Virus record (IMG/VR): IMGVR_UViG_2778261418_000017
Source of the DNA: a virus
Lineage: Duplodnaviria; Heunggongvirae; Uroviricota; Caudoviricetes
DNA length: 4,384 nucleotides
Reading direction: 5' to 3' (one strand)
This document shows, one piece after another, positions 1,599 to 4,384 of this stretch. Within the stretch, counting starts at the first letter, position 1, and every line of letters begins with the position of its first letter. The notes under the pieces are model-generated. The model was not told where the DNA came from. It did not search any database and saw only the letters and a program-made list of their open reading frames with translations. Position numbers and translations under genes: made by a program.

Positions 1599-1877
1599 TT
1601 ACCTCCAGATGCGTTGCTGGTATGTGCGGGATGAACGCGGTGGGCGTTCGGAGTAAGGGAGTCTGACTGAGATTATCCAGTGACGGTAGTCGAGGCTAAG
1701 AGCTTTCTTAACCTCGTATCCGCGCCTGCGGTAACACTGAATTATCCATTCCGCCTGCTCTTCAGTGCATGGAGGATGCTGGAACCAATCTGATTTGAAT
1801 GCGTGAAAACGCCGTCCGCACCTACTGGCAAAGACGGCAGAATCATTAGAATTGTGTAATTTGGTATCGTGCGCCAT
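1599..1877 (-). CDS. Small prophage protein of unknown function (92 aa from the internal ATG; the longer 119-aa ORF to 1958 is less likely)
   Basis: Open frame ending in TAA at 1601-1599, three nt before the GTG of the next gene. The longest ORF start (1958) would make the terminator T-tract code FFPGF, so I prefer ATG at 1877-1875 (MAHDTKLHNS...). It occupies the position that rem has downstream of hokD in Qin-type prophages, but I cannot confirm identity from memory. Confidence 0.45.
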   Translation of the reverse strand: MAHDTKLHNSNDSAVFASRCGRRFHAFKSDWFQHPPCTEEQAEWIIQCYRRRGYEVKKALSLDYRHWIISVRLPYSERPPRSSRTYQQRIWR

Positions 1878-1950
1878 CGGTTGTCTCTGCTGGCGCAGCA
1901 GGTGCCAGTTGTTCAGGCTGGCGTGCGGATTGTAAACCAGAAAGCCCGGA

Positions 1951-1976
1951 AAAAACAAAACCCGCCGTAGCGGGTA
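1951..1976 (-). terminator. Rho-independent terminator downstream of the HTH-ImmA gene
   Basis: On the minus strand the sequence reads ACCCGC-UACG-GCGGGU followed by UUUUGUUUUUU: a GC-rich 6-bp stem with a UACG tetraloop and a T-tract (plus coordinates 1961-1975 stem-loop, 1951-1960 tract). It lies immediately 3' of the stop at 1980-1982. Confidence 0.7.
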
Positions 1977-1979
1977 TGC

Positions 1980-3083
1980 TCAAACAATCTGAAAAATATT
2001 TCTTGGATTTGTAATAGGTCGATTGATGGAGAACAACTCACGAATTAAATCTTGACTCAAGCCAGTTTTCATAAGAATGCTTAACCAAGTTGCATCATCC
2101 AGCATGTCAATCGCTTCGGACAGCATACTTGGTTCTTCGGGGCGCAAAAGTTCATCACCAGGTTCAACTCTCGTGTACCCTCTAGAATTAAGATGCATAT
2201 AGCCAGTTCTTGCCTGTTCCTGGGTCAATAGTCCTAATGCACTGGCTCGATAAATACACATTTTAAGGCTAATTTTCCATCTAAGCTTAAATTCAACCAG
2301 AGCACTCCAATCGAATTGCTTACCTCGTATTCGTGGAAATTCTTTAATGAAAGATAGCCTAGGAACCAATAATGCGCTAGAAAAGTGATCAGCTTGTGAT
2401 TCCGTAAGTTTATCACCAGTAGTTATGCCCTCATGCATTACTAAATGCCCTAACTCATGACCTAAATCAGAGCGAAATCTACATATGCTTTTTTTTACAT
2501 TGTTCCTGATAATAACAGGCCTGTTATTGTGAACAGTGAATGCATCAACACGATCATCGACTCCCGTAACATGCGCAACGATTACCCCCAAACTCTCCGC
2601 CAATTTCACCATTGATGATATAGGGCCAAGACCTAGATTCCATGCACGGCGACAATCTTCTGCCACTCGCTCAATATCATTCGGGGTAAGTAATTCAGTT
2701 CCGGGGTGCTCTGGTATGTTGACATCAGGGAATTCGATTTCACCTTCAACAGCAGAAATTATAATATTAAGAATCTCAGCCCTGGCCAAGACACTATTAG
2801 TCAGCGTTTGAGTCCTGGACTTCTTACTCCGAAAATGGCAAACATCGCTTTCCAGAGCATATTTTCGCTCAGTAAATAGAAAATCGGACTTAATCATAAG
2901 AGCTGAGGCTATTAACTCCAAGCATCGCTCTGATGGCCTAAATCCCTTCTCCAATTTGCTAACGAATTGCTTTGTTTTGCCAATTTTTTCGGCCAACTCT
3001 TCACATGAAAGCCCAACAGCCATTCTTGCTAGTTTGAGCTTATCGCCTCGATACTCAGTGAAGTTATTCACCTGATGTTCCAT
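1980..3083 (-). CDS. Fusion protein: N-terminal XRE/Cro-C1-type helix-turn-helix DNA-binding domain plus ImmA/IrrE-family (COG2856, M78-like) zinc metallopeptidase domain with C-terminal extension
   Basis: 367-aa ORF. Residues about 14-70 (LKLARMAVGLSCEELAEKIGKTKQFVSKLEKGFRPSERCLELIASALMIKSDFL) follow the canonical XRE HTH pattern. Residues 209-213 are HELGH (plus 2445-2459), in the context SDLGHELGHLVMHEG typical of ImmA/IrrE peptidases. Shine-Dalgarno-like GAGCAG precedes the ATG at 3083-3081. AT-rich codon usage. Confidence 0.85.
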   Translation of the reverse strand: MEHQVNNFTEYRGDKLKLARMAVGLSCEELAEKIGKTKQFVSKLEKGFRPSERCLELIASALMIKSDFLFTERKYALESDVCHFRSKKSRTQTLTNSVLARAEILNIIISAVEGEIEFPDVNIPEHPGTELLTPNDIERVAEDCRRAWNLGLGPISSMVKLAESLGVIVAHVTGVDDRVDAFTVHNNRPVIIRNNVKKSICRFRSDLGHELGHLVMHEGITTGDKLTESQADHFSSALLVPRLSFIKEFPRIRGKQFDWSALVEFKLRWKISLKMCIYRASALGLLTQEQARTGYMHLNSRGYTRVEPGDELLRPEEPSMLSEAIDMLDDATWLSILMKTGLSQDLIRELFSINRPITNPRNIFQIV

Positions 3084-3714
3084 TACTGCTCACATCCAAA
3101 TTTTTATCCTTCGTACGCCGACGAAGAGACACCTTATTAATCTCCGCTTCGCCAGGGAGTGTGTTACCGTCAAGGGACATAAGTGGCATTGATGCTGTAG
3201 ATTGATGAGAAACCATACTAATCTGAGCACCATAGGTATTAAACCCAACAAGAGCCACCTCCCAACGAGGCAGTGTGGACTCTAATTCACCATCTCCCTC
3301 TTCGGATAAAAATGGCTCCGCTATGACTCGCCATGTAATATCTTGCTCAGCCTCAACATCACCAAACAATGAAAGCTGCTCATGCTCTACTTTATTTCGA
3401 CGCAGGCGATGTTTCTTTTTGGGGTTATTAATGCAATCTTTGGTAAATTGTAGCGGAACTTTATTTAAAGCAACTACATAGTCCAACCCCTTGGAAATCA
3501 TCTTAAGACCAGGAATTGCGCCTTCATTTTGAATAAGATGGTTTCTGACCCAATCATAAGCCCTTACACCTTCAGACCAGTTGCTGTCTAATACGTGCTT
3601 ATGATAGTACAACTGCTCAAGTACGTTAGCGATCTCCGCCAACAACTGGCGAACATTGCTTTCAGCAAGATAAGGTTGAAATTCCCAACAAGGAGCTAAC
3701 TGATTTTCATTCAT
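3064..3714 (-). CDS. Hypothetical protein, 216 aa, no recognisable family; first gene of the two-gene cassette
   Basis: Long uninterrupted ORF, antisense only to a short shadow ORF. ATG at 3714-3712, TAA at 3066-3064, overlapping the downstream HTH-ImmA start by 20 nt. Contains a basic stretch PKKKHRLRRNK (residues 98-108, plus 3391-3423) flanked by acidic segments. I recognise no catalytic motif. Confidence 0.7.
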   Translation of the reverse strand: MNENQLAPCWEFQPYLAESNVRQLLAEIANVLEQLYYHKHVLDSNWSEGVRAYDWVRNHLIQNEGAIPGLKMISKGLDYVVALNKVPLQFTKDCINNPKKKHRLRRNKVEHEQLSLFGDVEAEQDITWRVIAEPFLSEEGDGELESTLPRWEVALVGFNTYGAQISMVSHQSTASMPLMSLDGNTLPGEAEINKVSLRRRTKDKNLDVSSNGTSGE

Positions 3715-3744
3715 TTCAAGTTTCGCTTTTTTTAGAATTCGTAA

Positions 3745-3778
3745 ACCTTATATTTTCGCATTTTCCTGTTTTTGTCAA
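3745..3778 (-). promoter_or_regulatory. Putative sigma70 promoter for the two-gene cassette
   Basis: On the minus strand a perfect -35 TTGACA (plus 3773-3778) is followed by A/T-rich candidate -10 hexamers (AAATAT at 17-nt spacing, or TATAAG at 20 nt), about 40 nt upstream of the ATG at 3714. The -10 assignment is ambiguous. Confidence 0.4.
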
Positions 3779-3793
3779 CCAGACTAATGCATA

Positions 3794-3811
3794 AACCCGC
3801 CGAAGCGGGTT
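3794..3811 (-). terminator. GC-rich stem-loop (UUCG tetraloop) downstream of hok; probable terminator or 3' stabiliser
   Basis: Plus sequence aacccgc-cgaa-gcgggtt. On the minus strand this is AACCCGC-UUCG-GCGGGUU followed by UAUGCAUU, a moderately U-rich tail. It is nearly identical to the hairpin at 1961-1975. Confidence 0.5.
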
Positions 3812-3850
3812 ACGTGCGGGTGCGTTGAGGATGCCTGCCACATCAGAGGT

Positions 3851-3872
3851 GGCGAGGGATTTCTCCCTCGCC
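3851..3872 (-). other. Perfect 9-bp stem-loop immediately 3' of the hok stop (hok mRNA 3'-end structure)
   Basis: ggcgaggga-tttc-tccctcgcc is a perfect inverted repeat with a 4-nt loop, starting 8 nt after the hok stop codon. It has no T-tract, so it is more likely an mRNA 3' structural element than a terminator. Hok mRNAs are known to carry structured 3' ends. Confidence 0.5.
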
Positions 3873-3879
3873 TGGTCTC

Positions 3880-4035
3880 TTACTCCTCAGGTTCGTAAGC
3901 TGTGAAGACAGCGACCTCCGTCTGGCCGGTTCGGATTCGTACCTCGCAGAGGTCTTTCCTCGTTACCAGTGCCGTCACTATGACGGTTAAACAGATGACG
4001 ATAAGGGCGATTAACATCGCCTTTTGCTGCTTCAT
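3880..4035 (-). CDS. hokD: Hok/Gef-family small membrane toxin (type I toxin), HokD/RelF-like
   Basis: 51-aa translation MKQQKAMLIALIVICLTVIVTALVTRKDLCEVRIRTGQTEVAVFTAYEPEE matches E. coli HokD as I recall it: single transmembrane helix, conserved Cys, acidic tail. Strong Shine-Dalgarno AAGGAG lies 9 nt upstream of the ATG at 4035-4033. The ORF track shows an in-frame 19-codon upstream extension (ATG at 4092). Confidence 0.85.
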   Translation of the reverse strand: MKQQKAMLIALIVICLTVIVTALVTRKDLCEVRIRTGQTEVAVFTAYEPEE

Positions 4036-4156
4036 AGCCTGCTTCTCCTTGCCTTTCGGCACGTAAGAGGCTAACCTACATTTGTGAGACATAGATTGGG
4101 CCTCAGATTAATGTTAAGCGTCCTGCAAGACGCGTAATGTTAACTGGGGCTTTTCT

Positions 4157-4193
4157 CTATCTGCCTTTTGGTGTTCATGCCTGAGGCAGATAG
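4157..4193. promoter_or_regulatory. 9-bp perfect inverted repeat (ctatctgcc ... ggcagatag) in the hok upstream leader; candidate RNA structure or operator
   Basis: ctatctgcc at 4157-4165 is the exact reverse complement of ggcagatag at 4185-4193, with a 19-nt spacer. A second overlapping imperfect hairpin is tgaggc-agata-gcctca at 4182-4198. It sits where the hok mRNA 5' regulatory region would be. Confidence 0.3.
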
Positions 4194-4246
4194 CCTCAAG
4201 CACCCGCAGCAATTCTACTTAACTCTCCTTTTCCCGCAAACCGTTT

Positions 4247-4384
4247 TTATCCCCAGCGGCAAATCGAATACACCACCAGCGCCACCGCCATCGCAATTCC
4301 TACCGTTGTGAATGCTTCAGGCCAGGTCATCGTAAAATATCCTCCGCGTTTATCAGTCCGTTTCGCTTCAGGTAGACCATCGCC
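4247..4384 (-). CDS. Partial or small ORF ending in a hydrophobic C-terminus; possible 27-aa membrane peptide (MTWPEAFTTVGIAMAVALVVYSICRWG)
   Basis: It is the only frame open at the window end on the minus strand, with stop TAA at 4249-4247. An internal ATG at 4330-4328 is preceded by a strong Shine-Dalgarno (GGAGGA, 9-nt spacing). The frame stays open upstream to the window edge, so it may be the 3' end of a longer gene. The C-terminus is not that of RelE. Confidence 0.3.
   Translation of the reverse strand, partial: GDGLPEAKRTDKRGGYFTMTWPEAFTTVGIAMAVALVVYSICRWG

Follow-up and report, generated by a model that had tools for sequence, protein, structure and literature searches.

An AT-rich RosmerTA-type cassette in a polymorphic slot behind hokD in a Qin-like lambdoid prophage of Escherichia coli

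The window, which is the whole 4,384-nt stretch of DNA that was analysed, comes from the nin region of an E. coli lambdoid prophage that is Qin-like. All of the features described here lie on the minus strand. The backbone on the right includes hokD, a type I toxin gene that is so annotated in related genomes and in which a 51-aa Hok frame (3880-4035) lies within a 70-aa mok-like frame (3880-4092; Pfam HOK_GEF, E = 3e-23). The hok/sok regulatory region at 4030-4205 matches the sok antitoxin RNA model (Rfam RF01794) with 121.7 bits, where the gathering score is 59 (E = 2e-28), and the hokD transcript has its 3' hairpin/terminator at 3793-3810, a hairpin identified as a direct repeat and by its fold. 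The backbone on the left consists of orf92 (1599-1877; phrog_1212, E = 1.5e-35), a small, conserved gene of phages that forms the left edge of the cargo slot described below and is listed in related genomes as a 92-aa hypothetical protein, followed by genes for a ydfU-like DUF968/HNH protein (539-1597; Pfam DUF968, E = 9e-63) and the RusA resolvase (173-538; Pfam RusA, E = 5e-16). A 119-aa reading frame that begins at 1958 and overlaps a terminator is probably not the real start of orf92. The window has no tRNA genes, and integration linked to a tRNA was therefore rejected.

Between hokD and orf92 lies a block (1977-3793) that is a self-contained cargo unit, or moron, comprising a putative promoter region, the genes rmrT and rmrA, and an intrinsic terminator. 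The moron concept for lambdoid phages is reportedly due to Juhala, Hendrix and colleagues, and the block resembles lambdoid morons in being a unit of deviant composition, with its own terminator and a putative promoter, that stands between genes which are adjacent in related phages. An 18-nt direct repeat with hairpin potential, AAACCCGCCG(T/A)AGCGGGT, occurs on either side of the block at 1958-1975 and 3793-3810. The left copy belongs to the intrinsic terminator of the unit (1950-1975; terminator scan), which lies 3' of rmrA and consists of the stem-loop ACCCGCTACGGCGGGT at 1975-1960 followed by TTTGTTTTTT; the predicted RNA fold includes a 6-bp GC stem. Orthologous cassettes likewise end in terminators of their own with the form ACCCGC-loop-GCGGGT-T-run. 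Only the left copy is followed by a full T-run, the right copy being followed by just three T residues. In the empty site the hokD hairpin runs directly into the T-run that here stands at 1950-1959, and the right hairpin lacks a full T-run because the cassette occupies that position. The left hairpin has a GTAG loop, which was considered as an old marker of the cassette; the idea was dropped, as an allele of 94% identity has one mismatch in the left hairpin and the different loop is therefore probably just a SNP in the 99% allele.

At the other end of the block, cross-genus comparison and BLAST delimit a conserved putative promoter and leader (3715-3781). A -35 hexamer, TTGACA, at 3778-3773 is separated by a 17-nt spacer from a weak candidate -10 element, AAATAT, at 3755-3750. 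In all six contexts compared, which represent five genera, the TTGACA is perfectly conserved and lies near the 5' end of the mobile unit. Homology across contexts begins at about the GGTTGACA box, which is position 3780 in the cross-genus comparison, and BLAST homology to the copy in E. coli KL53 stops at 3781. A simple consensus promoter scan made no call at the TTGACA/AAATAT site; the conserved sequence at 3750-3780 would nevertheless serve as the promoter of the cassette. Within the cassette no structured RNA was found by the Rfam scan (E <= 0.1), the only match in the window being the sok model in the flank.

The two genes of the cassette are arranged with the toxin gene first. The rmrT gene (3714-3064) encodes a putative toxin of 216 aa and lies upstream of rmrA (3083-1980), which encodes a putative antitoxin/repressor of 367 aa; the genes share a 20-nt overlap, which suggests that their translation is coupled. 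RmrA has an N-terminal Xre-type HTH domain (residues 16-62) and an M78 (ImmA/IrrE) zinc-peptidase domain (residues 176-281), and both Pfam matches exceed their cut-offs (HTH_3, 2.9e-8; Peptidase_M78, 3.8e-11). The HELGH form of the HEXXH motif is intact at residues 209-213 and is followed by ESQADHFSSALLVP. The PADLOC RmrA model (PDLC03943) matches residues 11-349 with E = 3.7e-105. In a BLASTP comparison with the validated RmrA of E. coli OLC-716, whose sequence was taken from the supplement of the original paper, the proteins share 29% identity over 301 columns (E = 5e-35). RmrA also matches the NCBIfam model for the spr1629-family repressor/antitoxin (E = 4e-45), but its score of 154 bits is far under the equivalog cut-off of 335, which sets it apart from the spr1629/spr1630 pair of Streptococcus pneumoniae.

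The PADLOC RmrT model (PDLC03929) matches residues 7-206 of the 216 with E = 3.5e-25, and the protein matches phrog_5786 with E = 5e-83. RmrT has no Pfam or NCBIfam family, and no relative by sequence was found in the PDB, even with a 43-sequence profile. The family is small, with 55 clusters among 1.84 billion representatives. BLASTP against the validated OLC-716 RmrT gave nothing significant (best E = 8.8), and sequence comparison places the protein in a different RmrT subfamily, which is small and found mainly in enterobacteria. RmrT has no transmembrane segment, as the Kyte-Doolittle maximum over 19 residues is 0.95.

PADLOC calls the rmrT-rmrA pair RosmerTA, and in six other contexts the two genes likewise stay together. 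An antitoxin with HTH and M78/HEXXH domains, homology of RmrA to a validated member, and an adjacent, co-oriented toxin gene all agree with this assignment. The toxin is not similar to a validated RmrT, but the RosmerTA family has been described with diverse toxins paired with a conserved RmrA (PMC10440598), so that the dissimilarity leaves membership possible. The gene pair is thus a RosmerTA-type toxin-antitoxin system, a known type of anti-phage system, and by its likeness to the validated members the present subtype would also function in defence. The RosmerTA system of E. coli OLC-716, described by Millman et al. in 2022, protects against phages, and a deletion of its rmrA was not transformable, possibly through toxicity (10.1101/2022.05.11.491447). 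The present pair is like the OLC-716 system in its toxin-first, overlapping genes and in an antitoxin that combines an Xre-type HTH with an M78/ImmA HEXXH domain, and unlike it in having a toxin with no detectable sequence similarity to the OLC-716 RmrT. A second validated system, RmrT-D5/RmrA-D25 of Gordonia phage Kita (Ernits et al. 2023), defends E. coli (PMC10440598) and is likewise phage-borne with an ImmA-protease antitoxin. The Kita toxin is membrane-targeted and depolarising (PMC10440598), whereas the RmrT described here has no hydrophobic segment, and a different toxic activity is therefore expected of it. RosmerTA-like prophage modules elsewhere make ClpX or ClpP essential. Among Pectobacteriaceae, three strains carry RosmerTA; ClpX is essential in these alone, and rmrA is itself essential. 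In E. coli E101 a prophage TA module renders clpP essential.

Alternatively, the pair could serve plain addiction and so stabilise the prophage, or be a switch of the ImmR/ImmA kind that controls expression of the prophage or its cargo, with no role in immunity. The domains of RmrA follow the regulatory logic of ImmR/ImmA of ICEBs1 and of CapH/CapP of CBASS, in which a signal leads a protease to inactivate an HTH repressor, and the PADLOC capP (1.9e-14) and capH (1.6e-5) models match separate halves of RmrA. The parallel between ImmA/ImmR and RosmerTA has been drawn previously (PMC10440598). A split HTH and ImmA/IrrE pair with no obvious toxin alongside occupies the same slot in other strains, and TA modules are capable of addiction. 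In the present cassette, however, both domains are fused in one protein whose partner is a putative toxin rather than an integrase or a CBASS operon, and the full length of that upstream partner matches the RmrT toxin model. Elsewhere the prophage has a separate region for immunity and replication, and the cassette is dispensable for the backbone, as the slot was empty in 36 of 80 sampled loci. Furthermore, family members with the same architecture gave phage protection in experiments (10.1101/2022.05.11.491447; PMC10440598), and addiction and defence are compatible with each other. A role without immunity is consequently considered unlikely, and the RosmerTA defence assignment is preferred.

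The cassette differs from the backbone in base composition. The initial annotation had put the cassette at about 37% GC and its flank at about 60%; the shift is real, but its size was overstated, since the GC content is 41.3% (751/1817) for 1977-3793 and 52.1% for the flanks pooled (52.1% for 1-1976 and 52.3% for 3794-4384). The exaggeration arose because the estimates were taken from two 60-nt blocks, at 2041-2100 and 1201-1260, which were counted correctly (22/60 and 36/60) but are nearly extreme in their distributions. Over all 60-nt blocks the mean GC fraction is 0.414 (sd 0.064) inside the cassette and 0.522 (sd 0.059) outside it (Mann-Whitney p = 3.4e-8). An unconstrained likelihood scan for two change points placed the edges at 1975 and 3795 with a log-likelihood gain of 25.7, compared with a highest gain of 8.5 in 30 base shuffles. 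These edges fall on the two hairpins, in agreement with the earlier claim that composition changes at the hairpin boundaries, and the gain with the edges fixed at 1977 and 3793 is 24.9; a sharp discontinuity does exist at the coordinates first given. The contrast between cassette and flanks is greatest at synonymous sites and third codon positions, where GC3 is 0.353 for rmrA and 0.373 for rmrT and 0.50-0.65 for rusA, ydfU, orf92 and hokD. The dinucleotide signature distance is 102 between cassette and flanks and 50-56 within each class, and the cassette thus deviates from the flanking phage genes in GC, GC3 and dinucleotide distance alike.

Genes of mosaic prophages do differ in GC content, those of the A10 prophage ranging from 33% to 58%, and it might be argued that the drop reflects chance or the amino-acid make-up of two native phage proteins. 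The change-point test, the bias towards third positions and a presence/absence polymorphism with exact junctions refute this explanation, and it is given practically no credence. The polymorphism is seen in E24377A, where hokD, a single hairpin and orf92 follow one another and the insert is precisely absent; a synthetic empty-site query aligns to this locus in one piece with 97.3% identity. Among complete E. coli genomes (n=5,426), 237 (~4%) carry the cassette and ~4,780 carry the flanks. The claim that the block is separate from the prophage backbone is borne out by the empty site and by these counts. Insertion in the manner of a transposon was rejected: there is no transposase, and the inverted repeats are short, imperfect and scattered.

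The position behind hokD is a slot for various cargoes, and no description of it was found in the literature searched. Other strains carry at this position rem, a Doc-like toxin pair, a lipoprotein gene, the split HTH/ImmA pair or a divergent RosmerTA, and the inserts have 39-44% GC, save for one short insert of 291 bp at 28.5%. In a survey of 80 viral contigs the empty slots (36) were followed in number by rem-like inserts (28), RosmerTA of the present type (3), Doc-like pairs (2), and one each of a divergent RosmerTA, the split ImmA pair and the unclassified 291-bp insert; eight contigs lacked orf92 on the left. The slot is similar to the defence hotspots of P2 and P4 (PMC9122126; PMC13586616) in that alternative TA and defence cargoes are exchanged by recombination in conserved flanks, and differs from them in lying in the nin region of Qin-like lambdoid prophages, right after hokD.

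In 224 genomes the same slot holds a second allele of the cassette, with 94% identity, and a RosmerTA allele of only 24%/43% identity is also found there, which indicates that the association of cassette and slot is old. No full-length cassette was found in deposited phage genomes, and two plasmid records with the cassette contain the whole prophage region and hence the same slot. Strains A10 and 14EC001 carry copies with 99.3% identity to the cassette, and the backbone next to these copies matches that of the window at only 83-92%. The backbone of the window is instead nearly identical to that of E24377A (98.9% in the orf92 region and 308/308 in the hok region), and E24377A-like sequence resumes exactly at 3793, though the breakpoints rest on few informative sites. 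This mosaic of identities implies that the cassette entered recently relative to divergence of the backbone. Most likely it was donated directly by a different lambdoid prophage of E. coli, through recombination in the flanks.

The initial annotation had attributed the composition of the block to recent acquisition from a low-GC donor. The GC (41%) and GC3 (35-37%) of the cassette are indeed far under E. coli values, as might be expected if it had come directly from such a species and had yet to ameliorate, and related operons occur in low-GC Enterobacterales, with protein identities of 54% in Xenorhabdus and 61% in Limnobaculum. The same operon occupies moron positions in prophages of Enterobacter, Serratia, Limnobaculum, Xenorhabdus and E. 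coli KL53, and its GC content against that of the prophage flanks is 42.1 vs 51.3 in Enterobacter, 44.1 vs 51.8 in Serratia, 38.2 vs 44.4 in Limnobaculum and 36.8 vs 44.3 in Xenorhabdus. The operon is 6-10 GC points under its flanks in every host examined, with a similar offset in all seven contexts, and the low-GC hosts are no exception (6-7.5 points in Xenorhabdus and Limnobaculum). A deficit that is kept across hosts marks AT-richness as a long-standing trait of the cargo family rather than the signature of one donor. Several other patches of 33-39% GC occur in the A10 prophage that carries the cassette. The nearest copies, moreover, lie in the same slot of E. coli prophages, the mosaic points to import by recombination in homologous phage flanks, and the old association of both other alleles with the slot argues in the same direction. 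Direct transfer from a low-GC species is thus very unlikely, and the word recent applies to transfer between E. coli prophages and to nothing beyond that.

The best explanation, and one we regard as highly probable, is that the AT-rich block is a RosmerTA moron in the polymorphic slot behind hokD, imported by recombination between E. coli lambdoid prophages. Its low GC content would reflect the separate evolutionary history of the cargo family, and the present copy would have reached its current backbone by homologous recombination with an E. coli lambdoid prophage that bore it in the same slot. By analogy with the family, RmrA may bind its own promoter in the lysogen and neutralise RmrT. This neutralisation would be lifted, perhaps through the peptidase domain, once a phage infects or ClpXP-dependent control is lost, if the module behaves as its relatives do. 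Free RmrT in the cytoplasm could then arrest or kill the infected cell before the phage cycle is completed, as family precedent suggests. The downstream terminator, on the same family model, would stop transcription of the cassette from reaching orf92-ydfU-rusA-Q in the lysogen.

It is conceivable, though rather doubtful, that the hokD terminator hairpin (AAACCCGCCGAAGCGGGT) is itself a site of capture and exchange for AT-rich cassettes and, separately, that the RmrT subfamily is a new nuclease-like toxin; a PD-(D/E)xK nuclease, with a restriction-endonuclease-like fold, was considered as a candidate for RmrT. Among the larger cassettes with inspected junctions, each is bracketed by copies of the hokD-terminator hairpin. 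Two full copies bracket four types of cassette, namely the present RosmerTA, the 24%/43%-identity RosmerTA, the Doc-like pair and the split HTH/ImmA pair, and of the two copies around the lipoprotein cassette, one is full and the other degenerate. In both of the very divergent RosmerTA alleles the spacing from hairpin to hairpin is exactly 1,835 nt. A role of the hairpin in exchange would explain both the bracketing and the shared spacing, and the mechanism could be directed by the hairpin or by microhomology, in loose analogy to integron attC sites.

For the most part the locus confirms textbook behaviour, in that prophage cargo stands out compositionally and the cargo is a catalogued defence system. 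It also illustrates that a deviation in GC content should not be taken as evidence of recent transfer from a low-GC species. The slot behind hokD in Qin-like prophages is now defined as a compact and easily assayed site at which an empty state, rem, TA modules and defence cassettes alternate, and a RosmerTA subtype with a soluble putative toxin could help explain how the RosmerTA family senses phages and kills.

The locus is the nin region of a Qin-like lambdoid prophage, and every gene in the window lies on the minus strand. Transcription runs from hokD (3880-4035), which lies within a mok-like frame as part of a hok/sok locus, to a hairpin at 3793-3810, a conserved 67-nt leader (3715-3781), a 216-aa ORF (rmrT, 3714-3064) and an overlapping 367-aa ORF (rmrA, 3083-1980). 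A second hairpin with a T-run follows (1958-1975), and then a conserved 92-aa phage ORF (orf92, 1599-1877; phrog_1212), a DUF968/HNH ydfU-like gene and finally rusA. At the equivalent place in K-12 Qin the gene order is ydfU-rem-hokD. The ydfU/rem interval of K-12 MG1655 (L002) contains an intact homologue of orf92 (6307-6590) that lacks annotation in the RefSeq record. The hok/mok/sok locus of the window is complete (4030-4205; Rfam sok match, 121.7 bits). In the comparison with K-12 Qin (L002 7276-7350), homology stops just upstream of hokD, where relBE is found, which marks a further variable junction on the far side of hokD. A 27-aa ORF with one hydrophobic helix (MTWPEAFTTVGIAMAVALVVYSICRWG, 4247-4330, minus strand), just upstream of the hok/sok locus, may encode a small membrane peptide.

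The two ORFs between the hairpins encode a RosmerTA module. The 367-aa protein combines an Xre-type HTH domain with an M78 (ImmA/IrrE) peptidase domain whose HELGH motif is intact, and it matches the PADLOC RmrA models over its full length (E = 3.7e-105); the nearest NCBIfam model, the spr1629 repressor/antitoxin family, scored below its cut-off. The 216-aa protein matches the PADLOC RmrT model over residues 7-206 (E = 3.5e-25), and a Pfam search with it gave no family. PHROG families exist for both proteins, and sequences identical to both occur in E. coli assemblies. Compared with the validated system of E. coli OLC-716, RmrA is 29% identical (E = 5e-35) and similarity between the RmrT proteins is not detectable, in keeping with a published account of RosmerTA in which diverse toxins accompany a conserved protease antitoxin (PMC10440598). 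Transformation of an rmrA deletion did not succeed, toxicity being a possible cause (10.1101/2022.05.11.491447). Where RosmerTA is present rmrA is essential, ClpX is essential only in the three RosmerTA-carrying Pectobacteriaceae strains, and clpP is essential in E. coli E101 owing to a prophage TA module.

The module is set off by its base composition. GC content is 47.7% for the whole window, 41.3% (751/1817) for 1977-3793, and 52.1% and 52.3% for the left and right flanks, and 60-nt blocks inside and outside the interval differ in GC (p = 3.4e-8). The contrast is strongest at third codon positions (GC3 of 0.35-0.37 in the two cassette genes versus 0.50-0.65 in the flanking genes), and the dinucleotide signature differs as well. 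The initial annotation had put the shift at 37% versus 60%, based on two blocks whose counts (22/60 and 36/60) are correct, although both are close to the extremes of the distribution; the shift, real and highly significant, therefore amounts to about 11 points rather than 23. Its placement of the change at the hairpins, with a discontinuity at 1977 and 3793, was accurate. An unconstrained two-change-point scan found boundaries at 1975 and 3795 (log-likelihood gain 25.7 versus at most 8.5 in shuffles), which match an 18-nt direct repeat, the GC-rich hairpin AAACCCGCCG(T/A)AGCGGGT at 1958-1975 and 3793-3810.

A synthetic empty-site query, in which the two flanks were joined through one hairpin, aligned in a single piece with E. 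coli E24377A (97.3%), whose junction (...GGAAAAAACAAAACCCGCCGAAGCGGGTTACGTGCGGG...) consists of a single hairpin flanked by hokD and, on its opposite side, by the T-run. Of 5,426 complete E. coli genomes, 237 have the cassette and about 4,780 have the flanks. Other strains carry at the same position a 130-aa lipoprotein gene, a Doc-like toxin with a 59-aa partner, or a split HTH and ImmA/IrrE pair, and K-12 carries rem. Empty sites and alternative inserts bear out the proposal that the block is foreign, modular cargo separable from the prophage backbone. Of 80 IMG/VR contigs picked up by the hairpin-plus-hokD pattern, 36 had an empty slot and 28 a rem-like one, three carried RosmerTA of the window type, two a Doc-like insert, and one each a split ImmA, an unclassified 291-bp insert and a very divergent RosmerTA; eight had no orf92 on the left. 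Inserts have a GC content of 39-44%, except for the 291-bp insert (28.5%).

The divergent RosmerTA (L057 2464-4299, IMGVR_UViG_2531839662_000017) shares with the window its hairpin flanks and a hairpin-to-hairpin spacing of exactly 1,835 nt, and GGTTGACA motifs occur at its 5' edge. Its RmrT and RmrA are 24% and 43% identical to those of the window, RmrT having diverged much faster. The split pair (L016 1961-2799; also L034) encodes a 119-aa HTH protein and a 147-aa ImmA/IrrE peptidase with HELGH; no toxin was recognised there, and the pair may be a regulatory or defence module resembling RmrA in logic. A scar of about 100 nt beside the left hairpin of the lipoprotein cassette (L004 2077-2175, L005 2077-2160; likewise in phage hits H126 and H127) matches the end of rmrA on its 3' side (window 1977-2073) at 71-78% identity, which suggests that a RosmerTA-type cassette held the slot before being largely replaced.

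The extent of the mobile unit is delimited by an E. coli KL53 copy (80.6% nucleotide identity) in another lambdoid nin region, one that lacks hokD, where homology is limited to window positions 1980-3781. When the window, KL53, Enterobacter, Serratia, Limnobaculum and Xenorhabdus were compared, conservation started at GGTTGACA, the -35 box, and four of the six (window, KL53, Enterobacter and Limnobaculum) had their own downstream ACCCGC-loop-GCGGGT-T-run terminator. A consensus scan of the window called the terminator and did not call the promoter, which is thus a putative one. The operon lies between the Q and holin genes in Serratia and Limnobaculum and in the nin region in Enterobacter, and its layout is that of a classical moron. 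The leader (3715-3781, minus strand) contains two GCGAAA(A/C) repeats, one overlapping the candidate -10 and one immediately ahead of the start codon, together with an imperfect palindrome, CGAAAA-N7-TTTACG; these elements, conserved in five of the six contexts, are candidate RmrA operators.

The low GC content had been taken to indicate a low-GC donor, which is unsupported since the operon lies 6-10 points below its prophage flanks in all contexts examined: 41.8% versus 51.7% in the window, 42.1% versus 51.9% in E. albertii, 42.1% versus 51.3% in Enterobacter, 44.1% versus 51.8% in Serratia, 43.8% versus 52.8% in KL53, 38.2% versus 44.4% in Limnobaculum and 36.8% versus 44.3% in Xenorhabdus. 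The deficit is therefore a lasting family trait, held across at least 46% protein divergence, and identifies no donor. The E. coli A10 prophage (L001) has several more genes at 33-40% GC (751-1326, 4080-4361, 10096-10438 and 14355-15156), among them those for an LPS core heptose(II)-phosphate phosphatase and for a monooxygenase that is frameshifted; AT-rich cargo is thus commonplace in such backbones.

Acquisition had also been called recent, which holds for recombination between phages and no further. The cassette is 99.3% identical to the A10 and 14EC001 copies, compared with 87-89% for the adjoining orf92 region and 83-92% for ydfU-rusA, and the closest match to the window flanks is the empty-site E24377A backbone (98.9% and 308/308). 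Mismatch maps show a high-identity tract common to the window and A10 at about 1835-3791 and an E24377A-like tract that stops at about 1928 on the left and restarts exactly at 3793 on the right. These alignments are most simply read as a recent import, in which an E24377A-like prophage gained the cassette by recombining homologously with a second lambdoid prophage of E. coli. The crossovers would then have occurred at the right hairpin and no more than about 50 nt from the left one, the breakpoints being approximate because informative sites are few.

Two hairpin copies bracket each of the larger cassettes with inspected junctions, although the second copy is degenerate in the lipoprotein cassette and the left junction of rem in K-12 is of another kind. 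Four cassette types in the slot lie between two copies of the hokD terminator hairpin, which occur at 1958-1975 and 3793-3810 in the window, at about 2055 and 2902 in locus L006, at 1614 and 2962 in L016, and at 2464 and 4299 in L057. In the lipoprotein cassette (L004/L005) one copy is at 2061, and the right copy near 2722 is missing part of the left arm (GGAAAAAACGCCGAAGCGGGTT), as though the junction were inside the stem. The KL53 prophage (L008 3794-3819, ~3955-3975) has a hokD-type hairpin with a T-run despite lacking hokD. This copy lies about 165 nt past a truncated methyltransferase remnant and the terminator of the cassette itself, which is a different one; the hairpin thus seems to recur as a junction between modules of lambdoid phages. 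It may either mediate insertion or be duplicated for functional reasons. A plausible functional rationale is that hokD would keep its own 3' hairpin while the copy with the T-run would go to the cassette, so that in the lysogen orf92-ydfU-rusA-Q would be shielded from the promoter of the cassette.

What is observed directly is the domain content of the two proteins, the order and overlap of their genes, their conservation as a unit, the autonomous boundaries of the cassette and its place in the prophage. Based on family knowledge, RmrA would act as both repressor and antitoxin. Infection would lift neutralisation, perhaps by way of the M78 peptidase, on the pattern of ImmA/ImmR and CapP/CapH, and the freed RmrT would then abort the infection. 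The AT-rich block represents an already known type of element, namely a RosmerTA moron within a prophage slot of polymorphic cargo, and is mildly unusual only in its duplicated hairpins and in the repeated use of the slot by TA and defence cargo.
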